Source: Christensenellaceae bacterium (lineage in GTDB: Bacteria; Bacillota; Clostridia; Christensenellales; Borkfalkiaceae). Taken from it: a stretch of 45,100 nt of DNA. Shown here piece by piece: positions 7,701 through 43,830 of this stretch. Under the pieces are notes generated by a model, which made no database searches, was not told the origin of the DNA, and saw only the letters and a list, made by a program, of their open reading frames with translations. Within the stretch, counting starts at the first letter, position 1. Every line of letters starts with the position of its first letter. Location of the stretch: positions 1 through 45,100 of the forward strand of contig CAOMHR010000001.1 of assembly GCA_948482865.1 (NCBI GenBank). The letters are read 5' to 3'. The position numbers and the translations under genes are program-made.

Positions 7701-9267
7701 TCGCGTCGTAATTGAGTTCGCCCGCGATACCGCCCGCATAAGCGTAACGGAAATCGCCGTAGTCGGGGTCGTTTCCGAGACGGGTGTAGCCGTCGACGTA
7801 TCCGGTTGCATAGCTGTTTGTTACAGAACCGTAGGGATAAAGCAGACCTACGATACCGCCCGCGCGCATTGCGCCTTCAATGTCGCCCGTAGTGTAGCAG
7901 TTTATAATCATTGCGGCGATATTTTCGTCATAAGACCTTACCGCGCCCGCAATTCCGCCTACGCCGTAAACGCAGCCCGCGTTACCCATAATTGTGACGT
8001 TTGTAGAGCAGGAGCGCACCGTGGAATAGTAGCGCATACCGTTCGTTTCCATTAAAGCCGAAAGCTGGTAACCTATTATTCCGCCGATATAGCCGAACTT
8101 ATTGTTGCCCGCCGTTGCCGTAATGACGCCGCTTACGGAACAGTTGGTGATATTTACGCCCATACCGTAAGCAACCACGCCGCCCGCGAAAAATCCGTTG
8201 TATTCCCTGTTGTCGTCCGTATCGAACTTTGCCGCGTTGATGTCGCAGGTAAAGTTTTCAAGGTTCAAATCGTAAATCTGCGCGCCTGCCGCCACGCCGA
8301 ACAGTCCGATATTGGGCATAAACGCTTCGGTAAAATCGGTCTGGTCTATAGCGGTAGACGAGATATAGTAATTGGAAATAGTGTGGCCGTTGCCGTTGAA
8401 ATCTCCGCCGAAATAGTAAGAGTCCGAAATTCCTATTATGAACAGCTCTTCGCCGCGCATATCGATATCGTTTTCAAGACTGAAATACGACGTGGAAATT
8501 TGTCCCCAATAGAAATCGTTGTTCATAAACGAAGACAGAACGTAAAGGTCTATCGGCTTTCTGAGTTTGTAGGGATTATCAGCGGTACCGTTACCGTCTA
8601 TATAAACATTTTCTCCGTCCTTACGACCGACGAAAGAGTCGTCAAGTTCAAGACCCTGAATGCTTACGTTTATCTTACCGTTGATTTCTATATGATATTT
8701 ACCGTCCGTATCGGGATCGATAATCTGCGTGTTCGAAAGCACTTCGAACCTGGGATTTTCGCCGTAGTAAACGCTTACGTCAATAGTAAACGTAACTTTG
8801 GTGCCGATATCTAACTTGGTGCCTTTCTCGGCGTCGGTATCTATTTCGTGAAGGGTGCCGTCTGCGTCAACATATTCCGCATTAAAAGTCACACGGTAGT
8901 CGTTGCCGTCCTTGTCGCCCTTGTCAAACGTAATTGAGTTTCTTTCCGTAGCATACACGCCGGAAACTTCAACGGTGGTATCTTCTTTTATTTTGAAAGA
9001 ATAAAAGCCTTCTCCGTCCGCTTCGATTTCTTCGCCGTTTACGTCGACTTTCGGTTCGCCCTGGGCGTCTTCGTCAAGTTCGACCTTGAAAACCACCTTG
9101 TAACCGGATTTAACTTCATATCCCGAAGGAATTTCGCAAACAACGTTCGCGCCTTCCGCAGTAGCAAAATAAAGTTTGTAATATTGCGTTTCCTTGCACG
9201 AAGCCGCCGCCAGTCCTACGCACGTAATGCACACGACTGCAAGTATCGCCAATAAAAATTTTTTCAT
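4726..9267 (-). CDS. Large surface lipoprotein with GLUG-type repeats (1513 aa)
   Basis: ORF track. N-terminus MKKFLLAILAVVCITCVGLAAASC has a lipobox-like signal. Repeated GG(I/V)(I/A)G...NSYATG/NSFFTG blocks (GGIIGYQ, GGIAGAV, GGIVGLL..VTNSYATGYV, GGIAGEL..IANSFFTGEV) resemble the GLUG motif. AGGAG lies 6 nt before the ATG. Confidence 0.75.
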   Translation of the reverse strand: MKKFLLAILAVVCITCVGLAAASCKETQYYKLYFATAEGANVVCEIPSGYEVKSGYKVVFKVELDEDAQGEPKVDVNGEEIEADGEGFYSFKIKEDTTVEVSGVYATERNSITFDKGDKDGNDYRVTFNAEYVDADGTLHEIDTDAEKGTKLDIGTKVTFTIDVSVYYGENPRFEVLSNTQIIDPDTDGKYHIEINGKINVSIQGLELDDSFVGRKDGENVYIDGNGTADNPYKLRKPIDLYVLSSFMNNDFYWGQISTSYFSLENDIDMRGEELFIIGISDSYYFGGDFNGNGHTISNYYISSTAIDQTDFTEAFMPNIGLFGVAAGAQIYDLNLENFTCDINAAKFDTDDNREYNGFFAGGVVAYGMGVNITNCSVSGVITATAGNNKFGYIGGIIGYQLSALMETNGMRYYSTVRSCSTNVTIMGNAGCVYGVGGIAGAVRSYDENIAAMIINCYTTGDIEGAMRAGGIVGLLYPYGSVTNSYATGYVDGYTRLGNDPDYGDFRYAYAGGIAGELNYDAIIANSFFTGEVSARAAAGSNYAVEGEIAGFIGKGGNEGGAYIQSEKGLIYNCVSAADKDVTINNDYIKNTLGWSEGDWAFNGTGYPTVNTGEGSNVFDITVSFKDVTVGGNSSVIQNVANAYFPMSYWYLASPSETETHTIPEYLNGDGGLRSFGYFFDENLAVRVPNCYVPTHGVTLYAGFANYGEVAGKYYLQWSANTGNYRENDTDGKLVYTLQWVAEGDKYLELKPDGTLIYRDGALVSQSYYYYNGATITLRDTYLAIIDGKSNNAYTSFKATVDNGIMTVWDNEFYPATNPVKAVKEIENFGYGKYYATGVEYTFNTDGTGVYVNAGVKQNFTFTVNGGSIEIKTNDATLTGTVSGGNLTVDGVSLTAYDKFEGVWEKSAGSHKEYTFDGKGGWTYRYYGYNDGVLTVIDSKNGTYSPDGDGIKLSDGTKFTFNAEGQLVLGSEVYYYKQNSHAGVWNNFARMFAIEIDLKGITSDGYGEATINYGSTYGSYDVNYDVRVSTLSVVVGTDSATNKQIIETYENTPVIRLYRNDLLIASLIYRENSATLWGPVFRPDTGKSEVTTFYLYDDFKGDWVSSGYDVTFNGLGNYATEGSQEFVAVKGTATVNGKAGTYTLQNNTLTGVLECDGKTYNISFNEATGTISVTGAATFELQPRDKWYRVRLTDASGNVYSFDGKGDLAGGGTMTITAPNGTETTQTYNSGTITVSGNEFKLGSTTLYVYNPFTGEWFIANSYGEKLVIGNFSADYKASGTYYGKSYTFTYYPEGNYVTITDPADPTALPLYINVLDGNDVTELAISTSNNTEGLFSVCIGSGFDEYKGEYSYDGGTLILDGFGLSLFTDGAAKYVKDGKIVETFSYSIDEFNQVLLRSDESRLYYLFFEDADGEYQANGKHYAKVLPDNLYTVTAKDKDEVEFAFHGNGKVVTSSGLVYSYVIKNHDQTRMQYTLELTKDGVTETYVLDYSSDYGADYYTIALVIGEEESDN

Positions 9268-9708: not shown

Positions 9709-10611
9709 ATGAAGAAAAAAGCACTTTTTTACTTTAAAAGATATTTAATAATCGTACTGGGCTGTATAATCTACTCGGTGGGCGTTTCGTTCTTTCTTGA
9801 CGCAAACAACATTGCGTCGGGCGGTGTTACGGGTATCGCCATTATAATAAGCTACCTTTTAGAGTCCACTCCCGCCGCGTCGATACTCACAACGGGCGTG
9901 CTGATTATCATAATTAACGTGCCGCTCTTTATTCTCGGCTTTATATTCTTCGGTAAAGGGTTCACTCTTTCCACCCTGTTTGCAACCGTGTTATCTTCCG
10001 TATTAATAGAAGTTTGGAATTTAACGCTAAAAAAATTCATACCGGTCACCAACGACATACTTATTTCTTCGTTAGTGGGCGGCGCGCTGTTCGGCATTGG
10101 GCTGGGTCTCATTTTCAGAATGGGCAGCACCACTGGCGGCACGGACATAGTAGTCAAACTTCTGAGAAAGAAATTCCGCTACGTGAATACTGGCGTTATT
10201 TCAATGATTATAGACATTGTAATCGTCTGCTCGTCGTTTGCGGCTTACCGCGACTTTGACCTTTTATGTTACACCGTCATATCCATAGTAATACTCACTA
10301 TCGCTTTCGACACGGTGCTATACGGCGGCAACTCGGCAAAACTCGTCTATATAATTTCGGTTGAAGACAAAGCCGGATTAATATGCGACAGAATAATCAA
10401 AGAACTGGACATCAGCGCGACGATCACGGATGGTAAAGGCGCATACACCGGCGATAACAAGCGTATGATTTTGTGCGCGATAAAAAGTTTCCTTTATCCG
10501 AAGCTGCGCGACGTCGTTAAAGACTGCGACCCCGCCGCCTTTATGATTGTTACGTCCGCAAAAGAAATTTACGGCGAAGGCTACAAAAACCACACCGACG
10601 AAGAGCTGTAA
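9709..10611 (+). CDS. YitT-family integral membrane protein (DUF161 membrane repeats plus C-terminal DUF2179-like domain)
   Basis: ORF track, 300 aa. Multi-pass hydrophobic N-terminal part with GGVTGIAII and GSTTGGTDIV motifs. Soluble tail ...TDGKGAYTGDNKRMILCAI...MIVTSAKEIYGEGY is typical of this family. Confidence 0.85.
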   Translation: MKKKALFYFKRYLIIVLGCIIYSVGVSFFLDANNIASGGVTGIAIIISYLLESTPAASILTTGVLIIIINVPLFILGFIFFGKGFTLSTLFATVLSSVLIEVWNLTLKKFIPVTNDILISSLVGGALFGIGLGLIFRMGSTTGGTDIVVKLLRKKFRYVNTGVISMIIDIVIVCSSFAAYRDFDLLCYTVISIVILTIAFDTVLYGGNSAKLVYIISVEDKAGLICDRIIKELDISATITDGKGAYTGDNKRMILCAIKSFLYPKLRDVVKDCDPAAFMIVTSAKEIYGEGYKNHTDEEL

Positions 10612-10625
10612 TGTTTTAGATGCTT

Positions 10626-10667
10626 AAAAAGCCGCCCGCGGAGTTTCCGCGGGCGGCATTATTTTTA
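10626..10667. terminator. Bidirectional intrinsic terminator between convergent genes
   Basis: Perfect 12-bp stem GCCGCCCGCGGA / TCCGCGGGCGGC with loop GTTT, flanked by AAAAA on the left and ATTATTTTT on the right. Confidence 0.8.
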
Positions 10668-10670
10668 TTA

Positions 10671-11279
10671 TCAGAGCAAATGCTTTCTTATAGCTTTTAT
10701 AGCGGTGTTTGCGATAAGGCGCGAACATCTGTGTGTTGGATGAACACCGTCTTCAGAGTATTCGGTGTAAGGAATACTTTCGACAAGGCCCTGAAACATT
10801 TCGTCATAAGGAACAAACTCGTCCGCATACTCTTCCGCCACGCGGTCGATAATTTTAAGCTCTTCATCAAACAGCTTGCGCATTCTGAGCTTGTCGGGCG
10901 CAGGCAAAAGGAACGGTTCAAGGAATATGACCACTATCCCTTCCTTTTTCAGGCGCGTGAACAGGGTAATGAAATCCTGCTCGAACTTGTCCAAATCCAA
11001 TTCTTTGCCGTCGCTGTACTTGTGCAGAGTATTGTTTATTCCTATCATTATTACAACCGCGTCGGGTTTAAGGTCAATCGCATCTTCGCGCAGACGCACC
11101 AAAAGGTCGCCGAGCTCGTTCCCCGAAACGCCTTTGTTTATAAGTTCGAGATCGGTATCGGGATACAGCGGGCGGAGCTTATCGGAAAGCACTTTAACAA
11201 AACCGTTGCCCAAAGACTTTTCGTCGTTTCTGTCGCGTCCGCTATCTGTAATCGAATCCCCCAAAAATACTATTCTCAT
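10671..11279 (-). CDS. SGNH/GDSL-family hydrolase (lipase/acylhydrolase-like)
   Basis: MRIVFLGDSITDSGRD block I (GDS). Later GINN... and a terminal ...DGVHPT (DxxH) block. ATG 11279 has AAGGAG 8 nt upstream; the ORF-track GTG start at 11288 overlaps the SD and is less likely. Confidence 0.85.
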   Translation of the reverse strand: MRIVFLGDSITDSGRDRNDEKSLGNGFVKVLSDKLRPLYPDTDLELINKGVSGNELGDLLVRLREDAIDLKPDAVVIMIGINNTLHKYSDGKELDLDKFEQDFITLFTRLKKEGIVVIFLEPFLLPAPDKLRMRKLFDEELKIIDRVAEEYADEFVPYDEMFQGLVESIPYTEYSEDGVHPTHRCSRLIANTAIKAIRKHLL

Positions 11280-11406
11280 ATTTCGCACTCCTTAAAATAT
11301 CAACGCCCAACGCACCGATGCTGTTAAGCACAATAATTTTAACATAAATATATAATTTTTTGCAAGCGCACACGCAAAATTATTTTACTAAAAACTAAAT
11401 AATGCT

Positions 11407-11435
11407 TTGACAAAAAAAATATAATATGTTATATT
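11407..11435 (+). promoter_or_regulatory. Sigma-A promoter for tRNA-Ser (TTGACA-N17-TATATT)
   Basis: TTGACA 11407-11412 and TATATT 11430-11435. The tRNA 5' end is 14 nt downstream. Confidence 0.55.
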
Positions 11436-11448
11436 TATTTAGCTTTGA

Positions 11449-11539
11449 GCGGAAGTACCCAAGTGGCTCAAGGGGCTCCCCTGCTAAGGGAGTAGTACGG
11501 GAAACCGTAGCAAGGGTTCAAATCCCTTCTTCCGCGCCA
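11449..11539 (+). tRNA. tRNA-Ser: tRNA-Ser (anticodon GCU), class II with long variable arm, CCA encoded
   Basis: Acceptor GCGGAAG / CTTCCGC plus G plus CCA. Anticodon stem CTCCC/GGGAG with loop CT-GCT-AA. Long extra arm GTACGGGAAACCGTAG. T-arm AGGGTTCAAATCCCT. Confidence 0.9.
11477..11531 (+). repeat. attL core (inside the intact tRNA-Ser)
   Basis: TCCCCTGCTAAGGGAGTAGTACGGGAAACCGTAGCAAGGGTTCAAATCCCTTCTT is identical to 45046-45100. The identity probably continues to the tRNA 3' end, but the window stops. Confidence 0.9.
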
Positions 11540-11545
11540 AAAACC

Positions 11546-11584
11546 GCCTAAAATCGTTAAAAAACACGGTTTTAGGCTTTTTTT
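11546..11584 (+). terminator. Intrinsic terminator downstream of tRNA-Ser (phage-arm encoded)
   Basis: 11-bp stem GCCTAAAATCG / CGGTTTTAGGC (one G-U pair), 10-nt loop, then TTTTTTT. Confidence 0.65.
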
Positions 11585-11681
11585 ATGCCGTTTTTCCATA
11601 TCTACGCAAAATCCATAACTTTTTTTAAGTTTTGTTTGATTTTGTTTGATTTTGTGCTTTATTGATACCGCTATTGATACC
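11584..11681 (+). promoter_or_regulatory. Putative integrase arm-type binding sites, left arm (TATGCCGTTTTT box plus 2x ATTGATACC)
   Basis: TATGCCGTTTTT 11584-11595; ATTGATACC at 11661-11669 and 11673-11681. The same arrangement is at 44883-44943. The tandem TTTGTTTGAT x2.6 (11631-11656) lies between them. Confidence 0.45.
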
Positions 11682-11713
11682 GAACTTGTCCTTTATATTA
11701 TATGGTAATATAT

Positions 11714-12646
11714 TTATTCTTTTTCTATCTGTTTTTTTTGTCCTTTATCAGAAAGATTTTCGCACCAAATCAGGAAATTTTTCTGTTCAACGGCTTTGCG
11801 GTTGAGTTCGGCAGTCTCCATCTCGGCGGTGAGTTTATACCCGCCAATCATCCCCACAACCGCGGAGATGAGTATCGTCAGGATTTTTATTATGCACATA
11901 ACCACCGTGCCGAACGTCGGGTTTGAGATTATTTCCAACGCCAAAGAAGCCGATACGCATACGCCTATAAACGCCGTTAACAGATACTGCACCGTACGTA
12001 TCCCTTCGTACTTAGCCGTATTGATTTCCCCGTCCGGCGACACCCGCCTGCCCGTTTTCAGGCTCGCGGACAAATACCGCTCGTCGTATTTCAGCCGCTT
12101 TATGCGCTTTGCCTTTTTTATTATCTTCAACTGGTACTCGGTCAGCCCGAACTCTTCACGCTTTAATTCCAGTTCCTTATCAGAATAACACAGATACTTA
12201 TTCTCGAATTCTTCCAAGCTGACGTTCGCCGAAGACAGTAGGGTTTTTCTTGCAAACTTCAGCTCTTCCCTTTCCCACTCCCGGCAATACCCCGCTTCCC
12301 TGCCGCGCAAGCCTTTTTCTATAATCTCGCTCTCCTGTTGCGCCACAAGCTCGTACGCTTCTTTATGCGCCTTGGTTTCCCTGCCCTTGCGCTTTGCCAC
12401 CGACCGCGACAGGAAGTTTATTGCCACCGTGAATATGTACAGTATTATAGCTTCGTAACCGAAGTCTTTCCAGGACATATCGATATTTACGGAGATATTC
12501 GTCAGGTACAGCATAGCTACCGATACGAATATGATTATCACCGTCGTTACCGTCATTCCGTCCAGAAGACTTGTAAAAGATTTGTTCTTGAATATTCTCT
12601 GCCGCTGCTGCGGTTGAGACTGTTCGGGATTAATAGGTTCAATCAT
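11714..12646 (-). CDS. Phage membrane protein with central charged/coiled region (310 aa), function unknown
   Basis: ORF track. Two hydrophobic helices near the N-terminus (VTTVIIIFVSVAMLY, AIILYIFTVAINFL), two near the C-terminus (YLLTAFIGVCVSASLALEII, VVMCIIKILTILISAVVGMIGG). 8-nt overlap with the upstream gene. Confidence 0.6.
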   Translation of the reverse strand: MIEPINPEQSQPQQRQRIFKNKSFTSLLDGMTVTTVIIIFVSVAMLYLTNISVNIDMSWKDFGYEAIILYIFTVAINFLSRSVAKRKGRETKAHKEAYELVAQQESEIIEKGLRGREAGYCREWEREELKFARKTLLSSANVSLEEFENKYLCYSDKELELKREEFGLTEYQLKIIKKAKRIKRLKYDERYLSASLKTGRRVSPDGEINTAKYEGIRTVQYLLTAFIGVCVSASLALEIISNPTFGTVVMCIIKILTILISAVVGMIGGYKLTAEMETAELNRKAVEQKNFLIWCENLSDKGQKKQIEKE

Positions 12647-13097
12647 TGCTGTCTTGCTCCTTTTCTTCTTTCATTTTAAACGCGCCGCTCTTAACGTTCG
12701 CCTTAACGGACTGCTGCCACTTCGCGTACTTGCGGTACTTAGACCAGAACACACAACTCACTATGCTTCCTGCCGCCGCCGCGGCTTCTATCCATAAAAA
12801 CCTGTCCACATACGTCCGGAACAAGTCCAGCATAAAGAACGCCGCAAGCGCGAGAAACACAACAGCGAGAATATTGAACATAGGGAAATGCGCGAAGAAC
12901 GATTTGAATACGCCCATTAAAAAGGGTATAGCGTTTATAACCACTATACCCAAACCTATTGCCGCTTTAAACCCGCCGCTCGCCTTTATGAACGGCAGCA
13001 GGCAGCACGTTACTATCACGAATGGAACGAAGTATGCCGTTACAGCTAATACGAAGTACAGCCATTTCTCTTTTGTAAAGGTCCTGTAATTACTCAT
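12639..13097 (-). CDS. Multi-pass membrane protein, holin-like by position (152 aa)
   Basis: ORF track. About four hydrophobic segments and a charged C-terminal tail (KMKEEKEQDSND). GGAG lies 7 nt upstream of ATG 13097. Confidence 0.5.
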   Translation of the reverse strand: MSNYRTFTKEKWLYFVLAVTAYFVPFVIVTCCLLPFIKASGGFKAAIGLGIVVINAIPFLMGVFKSFFAHFPMFNILAVVFLALAAFFMLDLFRTYVDRFLWIEAAAAAGSIVSCVFWSKYRKYAKWQQSVKANVKSGAFKMKEEKEQDSND

Positions 13098-13314
13098 TTT
13101 TAAGCTCCTTTTCCGCCGCGCTCAATTCTTCCACATTGCCCGCAAACCGCGCGTTGTTGCCCAGCAACGCTTTCTGGGCGCGGATTAGCGATACCGTTGC
13201 ATTCGATTGCAAATTAAGCTCTTTTATTACGGGGCTTAGTTTTGTATTGACTATCCTGTCCACTATCCTGTTAAACGTTTTCTTACCTGCAACCGCTATT
13301 ATTATCAGTAACAC
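13090..13314 (-). CDS. Small ORF (74 aa from GTG), possibly the C-terminal part of a protein interrupted by TAG at 13375-13377
   Basis: Same reading frame as 13375..13683. The 57 nt between the TAG and the GTG are open and encode the first half of a TM helix. See findings. Confidence 0.4.
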   Translation of the reverse strand: MLLIIIAVAGKKTFNRIVDRIVNTKLSPVIKELNLQSNATVSLIRAQKALLGNNARFAGNVEELSAAEKELKNE

Positions 13315-16562: not shown

Positions 16563-19500
16563 TTATCTCCTTTCTTTCCAGACCGTTTTGTCAAAAATTT
16601 CACGCTTTTTGGTAAAATAAACCGGCGTGAACGCCTGTCCCGCCGTTACTTCTATATTCTGTCCTATAAGCAAATCACCGCCATAATACTGCGTTTGCTC
16701 ATACTTCTCTCCCGTTTCGTCTTCCACCGTTTCCGTTTTCGTGTACTGCGGCGTTACTATCGCCCAGCTCTTTCCGCTCGCAGGGAAGTTCTCCGCATTT
16801 AGCTCCCAACACCCGTCGGCTAAATCCCCGCTCTTCAACGCCGCCGACGGCAAGTCCGAAAGTTTTACGTCTTCAAACGCTTCCACGTGGTCCGTAAACT
16901 TGTTAAGCTCGGTGGGGAATACGTACAGCCGCGCTTCGGCAAGCCGCGCGTCCGTGCCGCGTACCGCGGGATTGTACGACGCCAATGCCGAACCTATTAT
17001 CATATTTTCAAGGTTGGTTACAAAGTCTATCTGGAAATTTATCTGCAACGCTTCGCGGTTGTCCTTACGCAATACGTACGGCGTTTGTCCTATGGTTGAC
17101 ACAAACCCCGACGACGCTGCGGGAACACTGCCGCCCGGCAGCTTTTCTCCCACTTGCTGATAATTCTCAGGCGTTATATCCGGTCCTTTCGGCTGTAAAT
17201 CAAAATGGTAATAATACACCCTGCCATAATAATCCGTGTAGCTGTAACTGTTCTGGAAATATCCGCTGACGTTACCTTCAAACGCATTTTCCACGTATTC
17301 CGACGTCGCGCCTGCCGAATAGTTATCCTGATACTTCCAGCTGAACGATATCGAGTTACCGAACGCAGAAGATATTACCGGCAGGTTTACAGCGCCGCCC
17401 GCGCTATTGCCCTGATAGGTTGTACCCCAGGCGCACACGTTTGTTATGCGCCCCAAACCCGATACAGGACTTTCAATCCCCTGGAAAAAGGTCAGTCCTA
17501 CCCAGAACAGGAAAGCGTCGTTTATAAGACAGTCCGTATCCGCCAATTCCTTTTCACCGATTACTATGTACTCGTGGTACAGCGTATTCCGTTCCACCGC
17601 CTGCGTCTGCGATATTTCCGAATACCGCTTGACGGATGATATGCCTATGTACGACGACAGCCTGTTGAAGTCCTTAGACAGCCCTATCGTGCATTTGATT
17701 ACTGTCGGCAGAAATTCAACCGCAACGGCGGATATGTAATAGTCCTTGTCGAACATCTGCCCTGCCTTGGGTATCTGGCTTAAATTAGACAAAAAGTATG
17801 TCAGTGACAGCTCTATATTGCCCAGCCTTGCCACCGCGCCCTTTAAATTCTCGCCGTAATATCGGCTCTCTATCACGTTCGACTGCTGGTTGTAAATTAA
17901 TGCGGCGGGACGGCTGAAGTCCTTATAATACGCCTTTGTCTGCCCCACTCGCGCGTTGTAGAACGGCGTATACGTTACGCGGAAAGCCATTGCCGGATAA
18001 TCTGTCGGAATTATTGCCGTCTTATTGCTTGCTTGGCTTATGATGTTTACGATTGCGTATTTTTCAAACGCTTGCAGCACTGGCTTTTCCAACTTAAAAT
18101 TAAGACCACCGATATTTTTACTGCCCTGAGCGTAATATATTCCGTACGCCTTGGAATAAGGCTGTGCATCAGAGTATGACTTTAACAGCGTATCATACAC
18201 CGACTTTTCAAACAGCCATTGCGTTATATCTAACGATTTCATTTCCCCGCCGTCCGCGTACACGTATTCCAGCTTGTCCACGCTGTATATCGGGTACTGC
18301 GTAGGGATTATCATATTACCTTCTTCGATTCGCACGTACATATTTTCCGTGCGCAGCGTCTTTGCGCCGTCCGCATACGGCTCTACCATCACCCCGCTGT
18401 ATTTATCTAACTGATTCACAAGGTTTTCCGCATTGCTGTCCAAATAAGATGTATAATTCTCAATAACGTGCTGTACGCTTTTAGTGATGTACGGCATATA
18501 TTTAATGTTGCTCTTATCCTGACTTGCGTACATATCGTAGCTTACTTCGTAATACCACTCGTCCCCGTCTTTCTTCGGCGTAAGGCGCGGCTCGCCGTGG
18601 ATTACCTTGCCTATTGCCTGCAAACATTCCCTTAACGTCTGTTTGGTGAACGACATTTCGGGCGAAAGTATCTTATTAAACCGCGCAGCCTGTCCCGCCC
18701 CGTCTTCACCTTCGGGGATTATCTTCCCATCCCCACTCATTCCGTTCAGCCTGAACCGCGGCTTTTCGCCCTTACGCAGCGGTTCCGCCAAATCCAGCGT
18801 GCGGTTTATCACGTCCGTTATTGTCCACTTTTTAAGGGGAACAGGGTTTTCAGTTGTTGCTATGGTGTAAGAGAAATCGTAATATGTAGTGCTACTAATT
18901 CCAGATGAACCAGTATAAGTAATTGTGTATGTACCTAACTGGTCAAGAATTAAAGTTTTTGTATAAGTATGTTTATCATCATATTCTTCTGTTGTCCCGT
19001 CTGGATAAGTAATCTTAATTTTATCTGGCTCGATACCATAATTAAATCCACCATTTAGCACGGTTACCGTGAGAATCTGTAATGAAGTCCCCAAAGGTAC
19101 CGGAGATTTATAATAATCATACATCCTTGTATGCTCATCACGTTGTGGTGCTAATGTTCCAATGGGGGAAACATACTCACCTATATCATCACCGTAAACA
19201 CGCATTACGTTTGTAAATGTCAAAGTATCAACGGCATAACATTCTGCGATTTTAGTCACTTCGATTAAATATAAATCGTGATTGTAATATCCAGAACCTA
19301 TGGGGGACTCTACCGCAGAATCGTTCGCAATAATATAACGCTTTGTTTGCTCCCTTACACGTTCAGATATTTTATGTACTCCCGTCTTCCAATAAATCTC
19401 GTTTGTAAGCTGTATTTCAACAGGCGTAAGCGGTTCAAAATTCTTCTTTTTAACGTGCCTTATTGCCAAATGACACTCGTCTAATCGCTCATCCAAAAAG

Positions 19501-19583
19501 TTGCCCCACTTTATTGGCATTACCGTGCGCGACGTCCTGTTTATGCCGTCTACATAAACGGCTGCTGAATTTAAAATAGCCAT
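16563..19583 (-). CDS. Large tail/baseplate structural protein (1006 aa), compositionally mosaic
   Basis: ORF track. AGGAG precedes ATG 19583. Size and position fit a distal-tail or tail-associated protein. The 5' approx 720 nt are AT-rich, unlike the rest of the gene. Confidence 0.55.
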   Translation of the reverse strand: MAILNSAAVYVDGINRTSRTVMPIKWGNFLDERLDECHLAIRHVKKKNFEPLTPVEIQLTNEIYWKTGVHKISERVREQTKRYIIANDSAVESPIGSGYYNHDLYLIEVTKIAECYAVDTLTFTNVMRVYGDDIGEYVSPIGTLAPQRDEHTRMYDYYKSPVPLGTSLQILTVTVLNGGFNYGIEPDKIKITYPDGTTEEYDDKHTYTKTLILDQLGTYTITYTGSSGISSTTYYDFSYTIATTENPVPLKKWTITDVINRTLDLAEPLRKGEKPRFRLNGMSGDGKIIPEGEDGAGQAARFNKILSPEMSFTKQTLRECLQAIGKVIHGEPRLTPKKDGDEWYYEVSYDMYASQDKSNIKYMPYITKSVQHVIENYTSYLDSNAENLVNQLDKYSGVMVEPYADGAKTLRTENMYVRIEEGNMIIPTQYPIYSVDKLEYVYADGGEMKSLDITQWLFEKSVYDTLLKSYSDAQPYSKAYGIYYAQGSKNIGGLNFKLEKPVLQAFEKYAIVNIISQASNKTAIIPTDYPAMAFRVTYTPFYNARVGQTKAYYKDFSRPAALIYNQQSNVIESRYYGENLKGAVARLGNIELSLTYFLSNLSQIPKAGQMFDKDYYISAVAVEFLPTVIKCTIGLSKDFNRLSSYIGISSVKRYSEISQTQAVERNTLYHEYIVIGEKELADTDCLINDAFLFWVGLTFFQGIESPVSGLGRITNVCAWGTTYQGNSAGGAVNLPVISSAFGNSISFSWKYQDNYSAGATSEYVENAFEGNVSGYFQNSYSYTDYYGRVYYYHFDLQPKGPDITPENYQQVGEKLPGGSVPAASSGFVSTIGQTPYVLRKDNREALQINFQIDFVTNLENMIIGSALASYNPAVRGTDARLAEARLYVFPTELNKFTDHVEAFEDVKLSDLPSAALKSGDLADGCWELNAENFPASGKSWAIVTPQYTKTETVEDETGEKYEQTQYYGGDLLIGQNIEVTAGQAFTPVYFTKKREIFDKTVWKERR

Positions 19584-19611
19584 ATTAAACTCCTATAAAA
19601 AAATTTTAATT

Positions 19612-19633
19612 AAAAAAGCACGGTTGCCCGTGC
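19612..19633 (-). terminator. Intrinsic terminator (minus-strand polarity) immediately upstream of the tail gene start
   Basis: Perfect stem GCACGG-TTGC-CCGTGC (19618-19633). On the minus strand it is followed by TTTTTT (complement of the A-run 19612-19617). Confidence 0.55.
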
Positions 19634-19642
19634 GTGATTTTA

Positions 19643-19671
19643 TTGCAATAGATTGCAATTTAAGTTATACT
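19643..19671 (+). promoter_or_regulatory. Promoter TTGCAA-N17-TATACT for the island membrane-protein gene, giving a leaderless mRNA
   Basis: TTGCAA 19643-19648 lies within the first of two ATTGCAAT palindromes (19642-19649, 19652-19659). TATACT is at 19666-19671. ATG 19679 is 7 nt after the -10 and there is no SD. Confidence 0.5.
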
Positions 19672-19678
19672 GTAAATT

Positions 19679-20335
19679 ATGGAAAAGAAAGCTTTTATTA
19701 TTCAAATTTGTTTGTGTTCACTATTACTAATTTTCTCCGTTGTAACTTTTGCATTTACTTTAAATTTTTGCTTGCCTATTATACAAAGATATATAGAAAC
19801 AACAAATTCTTCATTAGAATATCTTTCTTATATTAAAAAGAGCATTACCATTCATACAATTTACTGGGCAAGTTCTGGAATTGCCACTTTAATATTAATT
19901 GTGCAGTTAATTTATCAAATTACAATTTTTAAAAGATGTAGCACATTAAACAAAAATCAACAAATAACTATCTTTTCTTTTTTAAGTTTTACTTCCATTC
20001 TTTTTTTAGCAATATTTATAGCTGCTTCATATTACACTGCATTTACGAGCGACATTTTTAAAGGGGTATCCGACAAAACATTTATAAACAATGAATTGAA
20101 AGCTACATACCTTAGTATAGCTATTGCTGGATTATCACTAATAATTGTTGTATTTACAGCTCTATCTTTTATAGTAAGTTCTACCCAAAAAGGTAAAAAA
20201 CTACTTGAACAGCTACAAATTAAAAAAAGTTCTAATAATAAATCAAAAAAATTATCTAATACTGAACGATTAATAAAATTAGAATCAAACATTAAGGAGT
20301 TACAAGCCGAATTAGAAGAATTGAAAAAGGATTAA
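19679..20335 (+). CDS. Island protein D: 4-TM membrane protein with C-terminal coiled coil (218 aa)
   Basis: ORF track. Four hydrophobic helices, then a basic linker (KKSSNNKSKK) and ERLIKLESNIKELQAELEELKKD. It lies on the opposite strand to all flanking structural genes and is AT-rich. Confidence 0.7.
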   Translation: MEKKAFIIQICLCSLLLIFSVVTFAFTLNFCLPIIQRYIETTNSSLEYLSYIKKSITIHTIYWASSGIATLILIVQLIYQITIFKRCSTLNKNQQITIFSFLSFTSILFLAIFIAASYYTAFTSDIFKGVSDKTFINNELKATYLSIAIAGLSLIIVVFTALSFIVSSTQKGKKLLEQLQIKKSSNNKSKKLSNTERLIKLESNIKELQAELEELKKD

Positions 20336-20353
20336 CTTTTTTCTCCTTGTATT

Positions 20354-20383
20354 AAAAAAGCACCGATAACTCGGTGCTTTTTT
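20354..20383. terminator. Bidirectional intrinsic terminator between convergent island genes
   Basis: AAAAAA-AGCACCGA-TAAC-TCGGTGCT-TTTTTT. An 8-bp stem flanked by A6 and T6. Confidence 0.8.
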
Positions 20384-20416
20384 ATTTTTGGTTTATTTTG
20401 ATATAATTATATAACT

Positions 20417-20971
20417 TTAATTATAATAAGGGCAACTCTTACAAACTTCAGAAGGTTTTGGCGGTAAATCCAACTTTCTTCTAGCGTAATTGCCCAACAA
20501 TTCAATCGCTACTTTCCCTTTCTCCTTTAAGTCTTTTATTATCTCAATAGCTTTTTTGTTCTTAACTTTATATGTATAAGATATTTTTTTATTAAGTAAC
20601 GCCTGTCTAATTAGCAAAGCTAACTTACCCAACTTCTTATAATTCAAATTACTAATATTATAGTGATATTCTTCAAGTCCGATAATAGCTGTTTTCCCTT
20701 CTTCCGGTGAGTGTTCTAAATTAAATGACTGCTCAATCTCATCAAAAGGCAATAAGACAAACATTATTTTACTGATTCCTGACTCATAACCCGAATAAAT
20801 AGACGCTCCGAACGTATCAAGTTCTCTTAAGTCATCAACTCTCCATAAAGATAATTTATTTCCCTTAGTTTTCAAGTCCCCTATCGCATTAGCAGGAATC
20901 TCATCAAGTGGTATTTCATCTTTATCTTCATCCCAAAAACTTGAAACTATCGTACGAACCAAATACGCCAT
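20417..20971 (-). CDS. Island protein C (184 aa), no recognisable domain
   Basis: ORF track. Its ATG overlaps the stop of the upstream gene by 1 nt (ATGA). C-terminal ...CKSCPYYN. AT-rich. Confidence 0.7.
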   Translation of the reverse strand: MAYLVRTIVSSFWDEDKDEIPLDEIPANAIGDLKTKGNKLSLWRVDDLRELDTFGASIYSGYESGISKIMFVLLPFDEIEQSFNLEHSPEEGKTAIIGLEEYHYNISNLNYKKLGKLALLIRQALLNKKISYTYKVKNKKAIEIIKDLKEKGKVAIELLGNYARRKLDLPPKPSEVCKSCPYYN

Positions 20972-21600
20972 CAGGTATGTTCCTCAATAAATTCTTTCAA
21001 ATCTTCTCGAAGAAATTTATTACCGAGTTGTAAATTTTTTACTGAATTGATATCACTTATCTCATCCCACATTAATAAAGCGTTTAAAGCATACTCTTGA
21101 ACCTGTATGTTAGAAGACGAAAGTAATTCCAATATTAAATTTTCTTCATCAGCTGAAATATAAGCAAAGTCTTTTTGCGATAAAGCTAAAGCAATTGCGC
21201 ATTTAATGCTTATATTCTTTGATTTATTCAACTCATTAAGAAATAAGCTATAAGCATTTTCTTTTCGAAGTAAATATAGAAAATCAAAATACTTATACCA
21301 TTCACCGAACCCAATATCTTCATTATTAACCATAATAATGAAATTATTGAGCCAACTCTCAACTTTCTTCTTGCCCAAACCAGCAAATTCATTTAACTGT
21401 ATTGAAGAATCTTCTCCCATATAGTTAAAAGTATTGCCTATTTGAGCAAAATATTCATCATAAATATTTCCTAAATCATAATGCCTATAATAAGCCATTT
21501 GCTCTGTGGCTTGAATTTTTTGCTCAATATTATCTACCGGAATACTTCCCATTCCGCCAATAGTCAATACTCCCGCCAAAACAGTAGCTGTTGCACTCAT
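20971..21600 (-). CDS. Island protein B (209 aa), hydrophobic N-terminus and HEAT/ARM-like helical C-terminal half (weak call)
   Basis: ORF track. MSATATVLAGVLTIGGMGS hydrophobic start. The helical repeat-like region ...IKCAIALALSQ...ILELLSSSNIQVQEYALNALLMW is a weak by-eye call. Confidence 0.65.
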   Translation of the reverse strand: MSATATVLAGVLTIGGMGSIPVDNIEQKIQATEQMAYYRHYDLGNIYDEYFAQIGNTFNYMGEDSSIQLNEFAGLGKKKVESWLNNFIIMVNNEDIGFGEWYKYFDFLYLLRKENAYSLFLNELNKSKNISIKCAIALALSQKDFAYISADEENLILELLSSSNIQVQEYALNALLMWDEISDINSVKNLQLGNKFLREDLKEFIEEHT

Positions 21601-21613
21601 ATTTTTTACCTGA

Positions 21614-22333
21614 TTATTCTTTTATCAAATATTTTTCTCTATACTCACTACCTATCGAATTAAAAAATTCAATATCTTCTTTTGTAAATATTTTTTCTAT
21701 TCCAGGTTGAGTATTAAAATCATAAGAAATGATTAAGCCATCTTCTTCTACATTTTTAGATGAAATAAACTTTCCACGATTATAATCAATTATTTTATTT
21801 AATCTACATTTGAGTTTTTCGTTTTCTTCTTTATTTACTATACGAAAACGCCATTCGTCTGACTGAAGATCAAAATTGTCAGAAGAATGGATAAGTTTTT
21901 TCAATGCAGAATTAACACTTTCTTTTTCCGTATTAAAAAAATGACCATTCAAAGCTAATCTGTTAAATTTCAAATTCAATTTATCCTGAATTTCGTAAAT
22001 AATTTCAAGCGCCATTGAATTAAAATCTTTATATGTATTATCTTCAAAATCTAATTGTTCAATATGAATACGGCTTGTCCCAAAAAAAACATTTACTCTT
22101 TCTTTTTCATTTTTCAAAATAGGGCGAGTAACAATAGGCATAGGCGCACCTATAAATACACCGCCTTTTAATACATTATTTGGATTAATATTTATTTGCG
22201 GCGAATTTAGATCTTGAGTAGCGTTAATTTGTAACGAAAATTTATTTTTAATTTTTTCAAGTTTTGATACATCTTCAAAACTTACTGAATTAAAATTGCC
22301 AAATACGACAAATTGCCTTAATGCTTCTATCAC
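21614..22333 (-). CDS. Island protein A (239 aa), no recognisable domain
   Basis: ORF track. GTG start 22333 with AAGGG 8 nt upstream. 13 nt separate it from protein B. Confidence 0.65.
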   Translation of the reverse strand: MIEALRQFVVFGNFNSVSFEDVSKLEKIKNKFSLQINATQDLNSPQININPNNVLKGGVFIGAPMPIVTRPILKNEKERVNVFFGTSRIHIEQLDFEDNTYKDFNSMALEIIYEIQDKLNLKFNRLALNGHFFNTEKESVNSALKKLIHSSDNFDLQSDEWRFRIVNKEENEKLKCRLNKIIDYNRGKFISSKNVEEDGLIISYDFNTQPGIEKIFTKEDIEFFNSIGSEYREKYLIKE

Positions 22334-22355
22334 TTAATTAACCCTTTTTTATTTA

Positions 22356-22388
22356 ATTATATCATAAATTATAATACTTGCAAGTATT
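22356..22388 (-). promoter_or_regulatory. Promoter TTGCAA-N16-TATAAT for the three-gene island operon, -35 embedded in a 16-bp perfect palindrome
   Basis: Minus strand: TTGCAA (22383-22378), 16-nt spacer, TATAAT (22361-22356). The palindrome AATACTTGCAAGTATT spans 22373-22388. Confidence 0.5.
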
Positions 22389-22395
22389 TTTTTGA

Positions 22396-22416
22396 TTGTC
22401 AACTATTTTTTGCAAA
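22396..22416. repeat. 21-nt exact repeat shared with the cro promoter region (41770-41790)
   Basis: TTGTCAACTATTTTTTGCAAA occurs at both sites in the same orientation. It contains TTGACA (minus strand) and the palindrome TTTGCAAA. Confidence 0.9.
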
Positions 22417-22459
22417 AAAAATTGACATACGCACATTATTCTGAACCATATTTCAATTC

Positions 22460-22939
22460 CTACTGATTTGCGCCCCGTCTTCCTGTCGTGCCGGCGCGTA
22501 TGTTCTGCATACCGATAGAAACATTTTCAAGCGTATTCCTGGTATTGTATTGCTGAATGCGTTGCAAGAGTCCTATACCTTGGTTTACAGACGACCAAAC
22601 AACGCCAACAGCCGCCACGGGAAGATTACCGCTTACTGCACCAGCCAACAATTGCATACCCTGTCTGCCTACTTGCTGTAACCCCGAATAGACAGTTTGT
22701 AAACGTTGTTCATACTCTGTTGCACCAGTTTCAAGCGATACTTGCGAAATAGAATTACTTATTAAATTATCAGCAGTAGACATTATAGCTTTGTAAGAAA
22801 CGGCTTTGGCTAATACTTCAACCACTCCCATTGAAGACTGGTCAGCATTTGCCGTATTATCTTTTTCACTTGAACTCCCTGCCATAGCTTTTTTCCTTCT
22901 GGTAGGAAGTTCTATTTTTATAACGTACGGATTAGCCAT
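22460..22939 (-). CDS. Virion-associated protein (159 aa) with Gly/Ala-rich hydrophobic segment, function unknown
   Basis: ORF track. Contains ...LLAGAVSGNLPVAAVGVVWSSVNQGIGLL.... Ends with TAG at the island boundary. Confidence 0.5.
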   Translation of the reverse strand: MANPYVIKIELPTRRKKAMAGSSSEKDNTANADQSSMGVVEVLAKAVSYKAIMSTADNLISNSISQVSLETGATEYEQRLQTVYSGLQQVGRQGMQLLAGAVSGNLPVAAVGVVWSSVNQGIGLLQRIQQYNTRNTLENVSIGMQNIRAGTTGRRGANQ

Positions 22940-27650: not shown

Positions 27651-28160
27651 TTACATTATTTTGTGAATTTTTTTGGCTATTTCTTCTTTGGTAAGCTGTC
27701 TTTCGGGTACGCTTTTATCGTCGCCCTGAAACACTCCGTTACCGATTCCGTATGTTTCGTCCATACGCTTTGCGGCTTCGCTGTCTGCGTCCGCCGCTGC
27801 TTCCGCCTGCTTTTCAACGCCGTCAAGGAATTTCTCCATTCTGTCAAAAACGGACGACATGCGCTGTAACGCCGCGTCGAGCTTGGCTTCTTTACTTTCC
27901 TTTTCTTCCGCGCGTTCTTCGTCGGCTTTCTTAGCGCCTTCCGACTCGTCTACGCGGTCCTTTGCGTTCTGGGAATCTTCGTCCCCCGAACGCTTTTCCT
28001 GTTCGCCTACGCTTTCGTCAATACGGTCTTTTTCCGTCTGGCTGTCCGCGCCTTTTTCGGCAACGTCCTGTTTTGCTTTTTCAATTTCTTTTTCGTCTTC
28101 GGTCATTTCCGAATCCTCCTTATTTGATTTTTTCTTTTTGAAAAGATTAAAAAGTTTCAT
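27651..28160 (-). CDS. Putative scaffolding protein (169 aa, highly charged/helical)
   Basis: ORF track. Acidic, Lys/Glu/Asp-rich composition and location between the MuF-like and capsid genes. Confidence 0.5.
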   Translation of the reverse strand: MKLFNLFKKKKSNKEDSEMTEDEKEIEKAKQDVAEKGADSQTEKDRIDESVGEQEKRSGDEDSQNAKDRVDESEGAKKADEERAEEKESKEAKLDAALQRMSSVFDRMEKFLDGVEKQAEAAADADSEAAKRMDETYGIGNGVFQGDDKSVPERQLTKEEIAKKIHKIM

Positions 28161-28419: not shown

Positions 28420-29481
28420 TTATAAAATTTTTACTCTGTCGGGGTAATACGCCCTGTCCATTTCTTTGGAATAAGCCTTATACAATTTATAGCGCCGCGC
28501 TGCTTCGGCTTTCCACTTCCTGTACTCGCCGATATCCACGCCTTTATATCCAAGCGCGTTTTCACGCGCTTCTATTACCCCGCGTTCCATTGCCCGCTGT
28601 TTCTGCGTTATTGCATACTCGCGCTTCTGCTGTTCCTTGCGCACCGACGGGATAACCATACCGCTTTTATACTCATACAGCTTATGCCGGCAATTAAAAC
28701 CCAGCAGACCGTTCTTGTACGTCCTGCCTGCCTTGGTTGTATAGTACACATCCGTAGCATTTTCCAACGGCTGATACCGCCGCCCGTCTTCCGTTACGCC
28801 CGACGTGCCGTCAAGCGAATATACGACGCCCTGCCACTTCGCGCACCTGTCCGAACAATCGCCGTGAACAGAGCAGACTACAAGCCGTGTTCCGCGCTGT
28901 TTAAAACCCGCGATACTGTCCTGATGCCTTTCGTACCGCACCTGCATTTCAGCAAGATTTCTTAGCGAATTGCAACCCTTAAAATCGTTAGGGTCGAGCG
29001 CGCGGGTCTTTGCGAGATTATCAAGAGCACGGTCCACGCGTTCCATATACCGTTTCTGAAACTCCTGCAACGGTACGCCTTTGTTGTAGGCGCTATATCC
29101 GAGCTGAACGGCGGCTTTGTTTTCCGCAATTGTGGACGGAGCATAATACTCCCCGCGCTGTTCCTTAGCCGTTATGCCGCGCATAAGCACTATAACTGCC
29201 GCAATTACAGTAGGCGCAACCGATTGCAAATCCTGTATAAACTGCGTATACGCTTTATCCGCAAACTGCATCAGAGAAATCCGCGCGTCTTCTTTCAGGG
29301 TTGGCGAACGTATCCTTGCTATCGCGCGGTCTATTATGCTTTTTATCCGCGCCTTAACCACGTCCCTGACGTTGCCCGATAACACGCCCTGTTTGATTGC
29401 GGTCTTGATATCCGTCTGCGCGTCTACCAGCACGCTCGCCTGTTCATTCAACGGGTCGGGCGCGTAAACTAATTCTTTCAT
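28420..29481 (-). CDS. Head morphogenesis protein, SPP1 gp7 / Mu F-like (353 aa)
   Basis: ORF track. Follows the portal gene with a 4-nt overlap. C-terminal region has a Cys cluster CSVHGDCSDRCAKW and ...GFNCRHKL..., resembling the MuF NCRC-type motif. Confidence 0.6.
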   Translation of the reverse strand: MKELVYAPDPLNEQASVLVDAQTDIKTAIKQGVLSGNVRDVVKARIKSIIDRAIARIRSPTLKEDARISLMQFADKAYTQFIQDLQSVAPTVIAAVIVLMRGITAKEQRGEYYAPSTIAENKAAVQLGYSAYNKGVPLQEFQKRYMERVDRALDNLAKTRALDPNDFKGCNSLRNLAEMQVRYERHQDSIAGFKQRGTRLVVCSVHGDCSDRCAKWQGVVYSLDGTSGVTEDGRRYQPLENATDVYYTTKAGRTYKNGLLGFNCRHKLYEYKSGMVIPSVRKEQQKREYAITQKQRAMERGVIEARENALGYKGVDIGEYRKWKAEAARRYKLYKAYSKEMDRAYYPDRVKIL

Positions 29482-35534: not shown

Positions 35535-36572
35535 CTAATATTTAATAAAATTTTTTCCATAAATCTTGTTAATTTCGTCTATACAATGAGCCATACCTAA
35601 CCCGTCTTTTGTTGGTTTCCATAAGCCGTCCGTATCGTAAGCACCGCCACCCATACAATACTCATACTGTCTTGGGTGAGTTTTCTTTAAGCGTTGGAAA
35701 CGGCTTTCGCCTTTTTCAAGGTGTACGCCGAAGCTGCAGAATATGCAGCCTGTCCTCTCGCACTTCGTAGTACATAATTTTTGTCCGCAATCACAAAGCA
35801 AGTCATTGTACTTCTCTGCGCTATCACGCTCTCCATAGACAACTTCCCCATAAACGCTTGCTATGGGTAGATTGTATCTTTTTATGTATTGAAGAATATC
35901 TTGATTAGTCCAAAACGAAAGCGGTTTACTCGTTGGTTTGTTGCTTTCAAAAGCATTACAACCTGTTTTTAACCACGCATTAGTCCTTCGTTGGCTTTCT
36001 TCGGCAAGTGTTCCAACAATACTAACCTTGTTATTTTTCTTACACCAATCGTCAAGTGGTTTTTCTTTCATAATTCCGCAACAATAAGAGCTAATATTAA
36101 AATCTAATTCAGTAAGCGATTTCCATTTTCCATATCTTTCTTTACGAAACTCGCTTACACCCTTTGTTTTGCAATCAATACCGTTTAACCTTTCATTTGC
36201 AAATTGGCTGCCACGCCGAGCATAATAAATTGTCAAAGCTATATCTTTGCTAATAAACGGATAGCCATACTTCCGTATAACTTCGTCAAATCGCGTTTTC
36301 GGTCGCAGTATCGTTACATTATCGAAAGTCTTAACAAACGACTGTATTTCGGGATATTCAAGTCCCGTGTTTACGAATATGGCTTCAATATCGTGATACA
36401 TTTGACGAACGATATGTAAAAGCACAGTACTATCTTTACCGCCGCTGAATGAAACATAAACGCCGTTAGTGCCGTAATAGCTTACCCACTCTCTTATGCG
36501 AGCCTGTGTTTTTTTGATTTTTAAGTCAAGCGGATAGGCTTGTAATATTTTTAATTCATCTTTACTCGGCAT
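35535..36572 (-). CDS. PAPS-reductase-family PP-loop ATPase with C-terminal Cys cluster (DndC-like architecture)
   Basis: VSFSGGKDSTVLLHIV PP-loop. C-terminal CDCGQKLCTTKCERTGCIFCSFG. ATG 36572 (AGGGG 6 nt upstream) is preferred over the ORF-track TTG at 36578. Confidence 0.75.
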   Translation of the reverse strand: MPSKDELKILQAYPLDLKIKKTQARIREWVSYYGTNGVYVSFSGGKDSTVLLHIVRQMYHDIEAIFVNTGLEYPEIQSFVKTFDNVTILRPKTRFDEVIRKYGYPFISKDIALTIYYARRGSQFANERLNGIDCKTKGVSEFRKERYGKWKSLTELDFNISSYCCGIMKEKPLDDWCKKNNKVSIVGTLAEESQRRTNAWLKTGCNAFESNKPTSKPLSFWTNQDILQYIKRYNLPIASVYGEVVYGERDSAEKYNDLLCDCGQKLCTTKCERTGCIFCSFGVHLEKGESRFQRLKKTHPRQYEYCMGGGAYDTDGLWKPTKDGLGMAHCIDEINKIYGKNFIKY

Positions 36573-36574
36573 TA

Positions 36575-43742: not shown

Positions 43743-43830
43743 ATGCCCAGTTATTCTATAAAGAAAACAAAAGGCAACACCACAGTTGATGTGTGGTTTA
43801 GATAAAAATTGGAAAGATAAATAAATTATT

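Follow-up and report, generated by a model that had tools for sequence, protein, structure and literature searches.

Genes A, B and C form a compact three-gene operon in the window, the 45,100-nt stretch of contig CAOMHR010000001.1 from a Christensenellaceae bacterium (assembly GCA_948482865.1) that was analysed here. Judged from sequence comparison, A-B-C is a widely distributed mobile cassette, which is inherited as a three-gene unit. On balance, the cassette is likely to be an undescribed anti-phage or inter-element conflict system that travels as mobile three-component cargo, and an anti-phage role is the most probable one. A conflict system is favoured because the operon is apparently autonomous, its composition is foreign, it is sited in prophage cargo slots and toxin-antitoxin-type islands, its spread is sporadic, and its three genes are strictly co-inherited; from this context we infer a function in defence. 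The preliminary description of this DNA had proposed an undescribed multi-component system. That proposal is supported by the near-absolute co-occurrence of the three genes and by the absence of any characterised family among their matches.

Organization and distribution of the cassette

The open reading frames (ORFs) of A, B and C have the coordinates, minus-strand orientation and lengths that were first assigned to them (Table 1). Read from the sequence, the A/B spacer is 13 nt and the B/C overlap is 1 nt, both as previously described. The overlap motif is not ATGA, as had been stated, but TGATG, in which the A of the TGA stop codon is also the A of the ATG start codon. A promoter-like site, which is a consensus match only and lies in a region where the total of such sites is not above that of shuffled sequences, is located 22 nt upstream of the GTG start codon of gene A. 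A terminator-like hairpin is placed between the stop codon of C and the stop codon of the convergent gene D. With these two signals, the A-B-C unit therefore looks transcriptionally autonomous.

By sequence criteria, A, B and C are real genes under purifying selection, because their ratios of nonsynonymous to synonymous substitution rates (dN/dS) are low and their homologs occur in many loci. The dN/dS ratio is 0.04–0.33 in seven of the nine comparisons of related copies. Between two Pseudomonas versions, it is 0.04–0.10 for A, B and C. Compared with locus L003, the window copy gives 0.09 for C and 0.17 for B, and compared with L004 it gives 0.33 for A. The values for the L056-L057 pair are 0.27 for B and 0.53 for C.

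A tblastn search with C first found Acinetobacter phages, in which the C homolog is the last of three consecutive genes (226, 215 and 197 aa). Scans with a C profile recovered an uncultured Clostridia metagenome-assembled genome (L018), many Acinetobacter prophages, 20 metagenomic loci and four Pseudomonas elements of 55–57% GC (L019, L020, L045 and L055). Further loci were added through look-ups of representative proteins. In a six-frame census with the hidden Markov models (HMMs) of the three families, A, B and C follow each other in this order on one strand wherever C has enough upstream DNA, with three exceptions, and this order is found in ~27 distinct diverged versions. The co-occurrence that had been expected of such a system is thus non-random and almost absolute, with B and then A preceding C. 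The first exception is an Acinetobacter prophage (L044, 4961–6522), in which A, B and the start of C have given way to a 309-aa ORF resembling an insertion sequence (IS) transposase. The second is a 906-kb chromosomal contig (L065, 3613–4307), in which A is in two fragments. In the third (L052, 816–1463), the first gene encodes 215 aa and is not detectably A-like (HHalign E=0.1).

The iterated HMMs recognise 16 of the 17 A candidates gathered and all of the B (20/20) and C (22/22) candidates, and no cross-family or decoy match was obtained among 997 background ORFs. HHalign comparisons between variant groups give E values of 4e-5 to 6e-11 for B and ~1e-5 for A, compared with 0.1–0.4 for cross-family controls.

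Where the flanks are long enough for a comparison, the GC content of the cassette is below that of the host at the great majority of loci. It is 28–31% in hosts of 39–47% GC and 43–48% in the Pseudomonas elements of 55–57% GC. In L056, a cassette of 28% GC lies among flanking genes of roughly 51–60%. The cassette occurs in Acinetobacter baumannii, where an identical protein is present on at least 1000 contigs, in the Pseudomonas putida group, in Clostridia, and in uncultured taxa with Bacteroidota-like gene neighbourhoods. The A. baumannii prophage version is represented by Ab105-1phi (KT588074, 38458–40396) and the P. putida version by KPM65524–KPM65526. Its positions are diverse. In Pseudomonas lambdoid prophages beside purC, it is located between the integrase and the excisionase/early-left genes. 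In Acinetobacter prophages, it follows the lysis gene near the prophage end, and in a Clostridia prophage it follows a tape-measure-sized gene near the integrase. One further prophage carries it after a ParB-like gene. Some chromosomal copies adjoin genes whose N-terminal sequences, read by eye, resemble those of toxin-antitoxin genes of the PIN/RHH and nucleotidyltransferase types (L048 and L052), and one adjoins a Pfam-labelled AAA_14/DUF4143 ATPase.

At L048, apparently a Bacteroidota-like chromosomal locus, a palindromic CACAGGTTC...GAACCTG motif flanks the cassette on either side (3404–3434 and 5674–5704; 23/31 identical, p ~0.007). This palindrome looks like a REP-type repeat rather than a feature of the cassette.

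The cargo site in the prophage

The window is a temperate phage or prophage, as indicated by the precomputed Pfam labels on L012, a near-identical contig that represents the same phage, and by scans of the window ORFs. The minus-strand phage genes include a terminase gene, a minor-capsid gene (Phage_min_cap2) and LPD3 genes. A putative capsid gene on the same strand encodes 556 aa and has a weak CarboxypepD_reg match only.

A-B-C and gene D together form a low-GC island (28% GC compared with 45–47% on either side), which is bounded by two anchor genes. The 159-aa anchor protein is 43% identical to a 166-aa protein of L004 and 41% identical to a 164-aa protein of L072. The 1006-aa anchor protein is 60% identical to its L004 counterpart (936 aa) and 53% identical to that of L072 (1031 aa). 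Between these anchors, L004–L009 contain a 35–44% identical A-B-C cassette with a different small gene, and L072/L073 contain two unrelated low-GC genes on the opposite strand at the same site and no A-B-C. The site is regarded as a hotspot because related phages hold different cargo there, with the turnover being judged from three phage lineages. Because the anchors are conserved and the content between them changes, A-B-C is cargo and not tail machinery.

A tail-assembly or structural part of the phage, for example a set of chaperones, would agree with the position of the cassette, which shares its strand with the two conserved tail-module genes around it, and with its presence in the same region of the related phage L004. 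This explanation is effectively excluded by the other properties of the cassette: its GC content is 17–19 points below that of the tail module, it has its own promoter-like site and terminator, and related phages with the same anchors hold other cargo instead. Moreover, the cassette is found elsewhere near integrases, behind lysis genes and at chromosomal sites outside phages.

The prophage setting also raises the alternative that the module benefits the phage against its host, by counter-defence or by host takeover in lytic growth. Most copies are found in phages or prophages, and anti-defence genes also cluster in variable accessory regions, often without known domains. Such a module is improbable in view of the copies in chromosomes without nearby phage genes (L050, L056, L058 and the 906-kb contig L065). 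In the window, the cassette's own promoter and terminator inside the late operon are as expected of morons expressed by the lysogen, and a three-gene complex is large for anti-defence.

The two insertions of the cassette in this region are not identical. In L004, the homolog of the 1006-aa protein is split into a 143-aa ORF (7386–7817), which corresponds to residues 1–141, and a 936-aa ORF (10303–13113), which corresponds to residues 191–1005. The L004 cassette sits between these split ORFs, whereas the window cassette is upstream of the intact 1006-aa gene. The distance of ~430 bp between the two insertion points is suggestive of separate acquisition events or of a rearrangement at the hotspot. 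The first ~260 codons of the 1006-aa gene (window 18800–19583) have 35–40% GC compared with ~49% further in, so that the compositional anomaly reaches past the intergenic border of the island. The alternative cargo of L072 (10685–12026, with the same coordinates in L073) has 27–30% GC; it encodes a 265-aa protein whose N-terminus is lipoprotein-like and a 151-aa protein whose N-terminus is hydrophobic.

In the window, an imperfect, AT-rich direct repeat brackets the cassette exactly (20396–20440 and 22346–22388). Its core of 31 nt is 23/31 identical, and the repeat extends to ~45 nt if one indel is included. There is overlap with the promoter of A in one copy and with the stop codon of C in the other. 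Terminal repeats were rejected as a general feature of the cassette, since the repeat is marginal compared with shuffled sequences (p ~0.02) and repeats are absent in most other loci. A megablast search of the region against 50,697 phage records yielded no match.

The protein encoded by gene D is hydrophobic over its N-terminal two-thirds, and its C-terminal tail is charged and K/E-rich. Only weak matches to membrane proteins were obtained in Pfam and NCBIfam, and the protein is alone in its 90% cluster. Gene D is next to the cassette in none of the other cassette versions. It was therefore rejected as a fourth component, being not kept with the cassette elsewhere, and it may represent a separate moron, for example a membrane protein of the superinfection-exclusion type.

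The probable limits of the prophage are at window 9709–11539 on the left and 42471–44865 on the right. The left limit contains a gene for a YitT/DUF2179 membrane protein, a 235-aa gene and the tRNA-Ser(gct) gene. The right limit, with 29–37% GC, contains a gene for a 423-aa protein that has a GIY-YIG domain at its C-terminus, and after it the tyrosine integrase gene. In the early region, the minus strand encodes a PAPS_reduct-domain protein (35535–36578) and a Lin1244_N-domain protein (36919–37686). PAPS-reductase-like phage proteins are often tied to DNA modification pathways. L012 also encodes a 66-aa protein (3192–3392) with a precomputed match to Pfam PF21825 'Sequestin'. Its gene is flanked by the minor-capsid gene and by a 151-aa ORF, which in turn lies upstream of the putative capsid gene. 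The window equivalent of this gene is between ORFs 28420–29481 and 27651–28160.

Table 1. Positions of the cassette, its expression signals and the surrounding prophage features in the window.
Feature	Position	Strand	Description	Basis
Gene A	21614–22333	minus	239 aa, GTG start	ORF
Gene B	20971–21600	minus	209 aa	ORF
Gene C	20417–20971	minus	184 aa	ORF
Promoter-like site	22356–22383	minus	TTGCAA-16 nt-TATAAT, TG extension	Consensus scan, 10/12 matches
Terminator-like hairpin	20353–20384		Bidirectional, intrinsic; 14-bp perfect stem, T-runs on both sides	Inverted repeat I14, 100% complementary
Gene D	19679–20335	plus	218 aa, convergent with the cassette	ORF
Low-GC cargo island	19590–22459		A-B-C and gene D, 2.8 kb	Composition
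Upstream anchor gene of the hotspot	22460–22939	minus	159 aa	
Downstream anchor gene of the hotspot	16563–19583	minus	1006-aa tail-module protein	
tRNA-Ser(gct)	11449–11539		Adjoins host-like genes	
Integrase (tyrosine)	43831–44865			Scans of window ORFs

Features of proteins C, B and A

The protein families were compared with Pfam-A (2025), NCBIfam r20, PADLOC-DB 2.0.0 (2023) and, for the window proteins only, PHROGs. For Pfam, NCBIfam and PADLOC, the scans covered window A to D and nine diverged homologs; Pfam was also applied to all 108 C sequences and NCBIfam to all 15 A sequences. These scans agree with the initial impression that A, B and C have no recognisable domain: A and B have no significant match in Pfam, NCBIfam, PADLOC or PHROGs, and C matches only phrog_10743. 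In PADLOC, the nine diverged homologs yielded two chance-level matches only (E values of 0.017 and 0.06). In six profile searches of PDB sequences, which covered each of the three families at two depths, no match had an E value lower than 0.067. No high-confidence HMM or structure match assigns A, B or C to a characterised pathway, in line with what had been predicted. Public sources label the A, B and C proteins hypothetical, and a literature search found no paper describing the A-B-C cassette or its proteins.

C is the most conserved component of the cassette. Its family comprises 545 clusters at 50% identity (HMMER, E≤1e-3, 1.84 billion representatives), and nearly all of the members are stand-alone proteins; the median length is 171 aa. 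Three residues, W13, S41 and H103, do not vary in 108 sequences (alignment A10), and conservation is at least 93% for R6, T35 and W43 and 91% for D28. The N-terminal pattern to which the preliminary description drew attention corresponds to the conserved core of the family in the alignments. The C-terminal sequence CKSCPYYN, which it had also pointed out, is present in window C but is not a family feature, as a Cys-pair (CxxC) tail is found in only 8 of ~150 members. The AlphaFold2 model of C, which was calculated from the 108-sequence alignment, is of very high confidence and has alternating strands and helices, with a predicted local distance difference test score (pLDDT) of 94.3 and a predicted template modelling (pTM) score of 0.86. 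Foldseek identified no neighbour of this model in the PDB (best E=0.54, template modelling (TM) score ≤0.22) or among the predicted viral structures of BFVD (best E=0.13, TM≤0.31); a fold match required E≤0.001 or TM≥0.5, and neither value was reached in the two databases. The predicted fold of C is apparently new, judged against the PDB and BFVD.

Two natural fusions link C to other domains. P0081, a protein of 404 aa, combines a B domain (E=4e-25) with a C domain (E=8e-36), and an A gene lies upstream of it. Such a B-C fusion implies joint physical action of the two proteins. P0044 is a fusion of C to an ASCH domain (Pfam ASCH, 30.7 bits compared with a cutoff of 21.2), and its gene is preceded by A and B. 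The ASCH domain belongs to the PUA-like superfamily, whose members bind RNA and modified nucleic acids. The C-ASCH fusion hints that the partner or substrate of C is a nucleic acid or a nucleotide derivative.

The B-C fusion also bears on the possibility that A-B-C is a tripartite toxin-antitoxin or addiction module that stabilises its carrier elements, in which one protein is toxic, the others neutralise or regulate it, and phage exclusion is secondary. A fusion is unusual for a pair that needs to separate. In addition, A, B and C are alike in size (165–270 aa), unlike the usual small and labile antitoxin. The library scans showed no resemblance to a known toxin or antitoxin family and no helix-turn-helix motif; in 12 proteins from four cassette variants, no toxin or antitoxin domain and no DNA-binding autoregulator was detected with Pfam, NCBIfam and PADLOC. 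We thus consider an addiction module rather unlikely, even though it would fit the tight operon with overlapping genes, the presence on mobile elements and beside apparent type II toxin-antitoxin genes (by eye; L048 and L052), the patchy spread and foreign GC, and the decaying copies (IS-disrupted in L044, with a fragmented A in L065).

B consists of two dissimilar halves. The N-terminal half is poorly conserved (mean pairwise identity of 0.14). The C-terminal half is helical and better conserved (identity of 0.23), with near-invariant Trp and Leu residues in the motif EYAL...W...L...WL..Y. The EYAL motif had been singled out from the window protein, and it is the conserved core of the B family. 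The hydrophobic N-terminus of B had been noticed as well; it is present in the window protein and its closest relatives only. Because the N-terminal half is the most variable part of B, this hydrophobic segment is not family-wide, and a signal or anchor function was rejected as a family feature. Faint similarity to helical repeats was found for B: the match to Pfam Arm has E=0.012 (16.1 bits compared with a cutoff of 20.6), the match to Pfam HEAT has E=0.11 (13.2 bits compared with a cutoff of 23.5), and the fusion protein matches HEAT with E=0.019. The B profile matches CAND1, Utp20 and designed repeats among PDB sequences (E values of 0.07–0.2). These matches are below the cutoffs and cover a single stretch with no tandem repeats, and B is not assigned to the HEAT/ARM families.

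A has two invariant residues, R125 and N179, and four conserved ones, E160, D205, N207 and T208 (alignment A12). Its homologs include proteins with 42–44% identity to window A. An AlphaFold model of A from three sequences predicts two repeats of roughly beta-alpha-beta4-alpha topology. The top Foldseek matches of this model are McsB, arginine and creatine kinases, and AdoMetDC (probability 0.9–0.99), with weak scores (E values of 1e-3 to 1e-2, TM 0.25–0.38, root-mean-square deviation >9 Å). A 17-sequence A profile retrieved no guanidino-kinase or AdoMetDC-like protein from PDB sequences. The possible kinship of A to guanidino or protein-arginine kinases or to AdoMetDC is a lead from the model only.

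The preliminary description had compared A with TIGR04255, and this comparison is weakly supported. The A homolog of L057 aligns with TIGR04255 nearly end to end (residues 28–200 on positions 31–212 of 252) with 19.2 bits and E=8.8e-4, compared with a cutoff of 30 bits, and UniRef labels an A homolog of P. putida as a TIGR04255 family protein, a name that favours a distant kinship. The A11 set contained 14 full-length A members, one of which is L057, and a stray 50-aa fragment of L052 gene 1. Window A and the 13 other full-length members have no match to TIGR04255 even at E≤10. L057 is the best member, and neither it nor window A reaches the 30-bit cutoff. A is at best a sub-threshold relative of TIGR04255, as far as sequence profiles indicate.

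The conserved Arg, Glu, Asn and Asp of A are compatible with an enzyme, and together with the weak Foldseek lead to guanidino-kinase or AdoMetDC-like folds they would suit a non-conflict cellular function. A-B-C would then be a small metabolic, stress-response or regulatory complex that is mobile by chance, and some copies are indeed among housekeeping genes. A cassette of this kind would hardly be expected to occur sporadically across phyla with a consistently foreign GC content and a preference for prophage cargo slots, and no association with metabolic operons was observed in the sampled contexts. We therefore regard a purely cellular function as doubtful.

Proposed mode of action and comparison with known systems

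If A-B-C is a conflict system, the prophage would express the three proteins from the cassette's own promoter. The HEAT-like C-terminal half of B would serve as a scaffold that binds C, and the fast-evolving N-terminal half of B may meet the trigger. C would be the output module, with a putative pocket formed by the invariant Trp, Ser and His residues together with Arg and Thr; as the C-ASCH fusion suggests, it may act on a nucleic acid or on a nucleotide-derived ligand. A, a protein with two predicted lobes in which Arg, Glu, Asn and Asp are conserved, would act as a sensor or as a partner that handles a small molecule or nucleotide. When another phage infects the cell, the complex would either stop that phage or bring about cell arrest. 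Tentatively, and as a possibility rather than a probability, the cassette may represent a new three-component immune system built entirely from uncharacterised families, in which C has a new fold with an invariant Trp/Ser/His site and works in a complex with B, a HEAT-like adaptor, and A is a TIGR04255-like protein that provides sensing or a signal in the form of a small molecule or nucleotide.

Several results weigh against a conflict system or against this scheme. No component of A-B-C is linked to defence by homology: window A, B, C and D match 0 PADLOC families at E≤1, and no effector chemistry (nuclease, NADase, protease, pore or NTPase) is recognisable in the library scans. The chromosomal copies in L050, L056 and L058 are between housekeeping genes without defence neighbours. 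The model of A is poor (pLDDT 49). Window C has Asn at positions 28 and 105, where 91% and 77% of the family members, respectively, have Asp. A Ser-His-Asp triad was considered for C and is weakened by these substitutions, because a simple catalytic reading of this type fails for the window copy with Asn at both Asp positions. The roles given to A, B and C are likewise inferred.

If the cassette is an immune or conflict system, a widespread system has been wholly missed by current annotation tools. Such a system would bring a new protein fold, presumably with a new biochemical mechanism, and a first clue to what the orphan TIGR04255-like proteins do. There could be practical relevance as well, since the versions from Acinetobacter and Pseudomonas are in prophages of species targeted by phage therapy. 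The tail-module cargo hotspot documented here could be mined for further systems.

On the sequence evidence available, the cassette is not a member or a variant of any described system. One counterpart of a single component is phrog_10743 of PHROGs, which window C matches near full length (E=1.6e-12, residues 1–160 on profile positions 1–161 of 178). The C homologs of the Acinetobacter phages found by tblastn probably belong to the same family. Unlike the cassette, phrog_10743 is a bare sequence cluster of unknown function, without a record of A and B partners. B resembles the HEAT/ARM alpha-solenoids in its conserved C-terminal segment, with repeated faint matches, and differs from them in that these matches are below the curated cutoffs and span one repeat-length stretch of ~20–30 residues. 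The catalytic fold of phosphagen kinases and the AdoMetDC fold are internal duplications of beta-alpha-beta units, and the predicted repeats of A resemble the internal duplication of the phosphagen/protein-arginine kinase and AdoMetDC folds. A is similar in length to TIGR04255 (NCBIfam, 'sporadically distributed'; ~250 aa) and aligns near end to end in L057, but it is below the cutoff. That family is itself uncharacterised, so membership would give A no function, and a literature search for TIGR04255/IPR026349 found no paper.

The study of phage hotspots by Rousset and colleagues reportedly includes a three-hypothetical-protein system, '3HP'. The cargo of the window matches no system modelled in PADLOC-DB 2.0.0, a library that may or may not contain 3HP models. 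Antiviral cargo hotspots of prophages and satellites have been defined as loci of ~1–5 kb between two conserved phage genes with a high turnover (Rousset et al., 2022; PMC9122126). The window site has these properties, as it is a small locus of 2.8 kb and foreign composition between conserved anchors, and its content differs in related phages. In contrast to the hotspots of that study, which are in P2/P4 of E. coli next to the cos site (PMC9122126), the slot in the window is inside the tail module of a prophage from an uncultured host.

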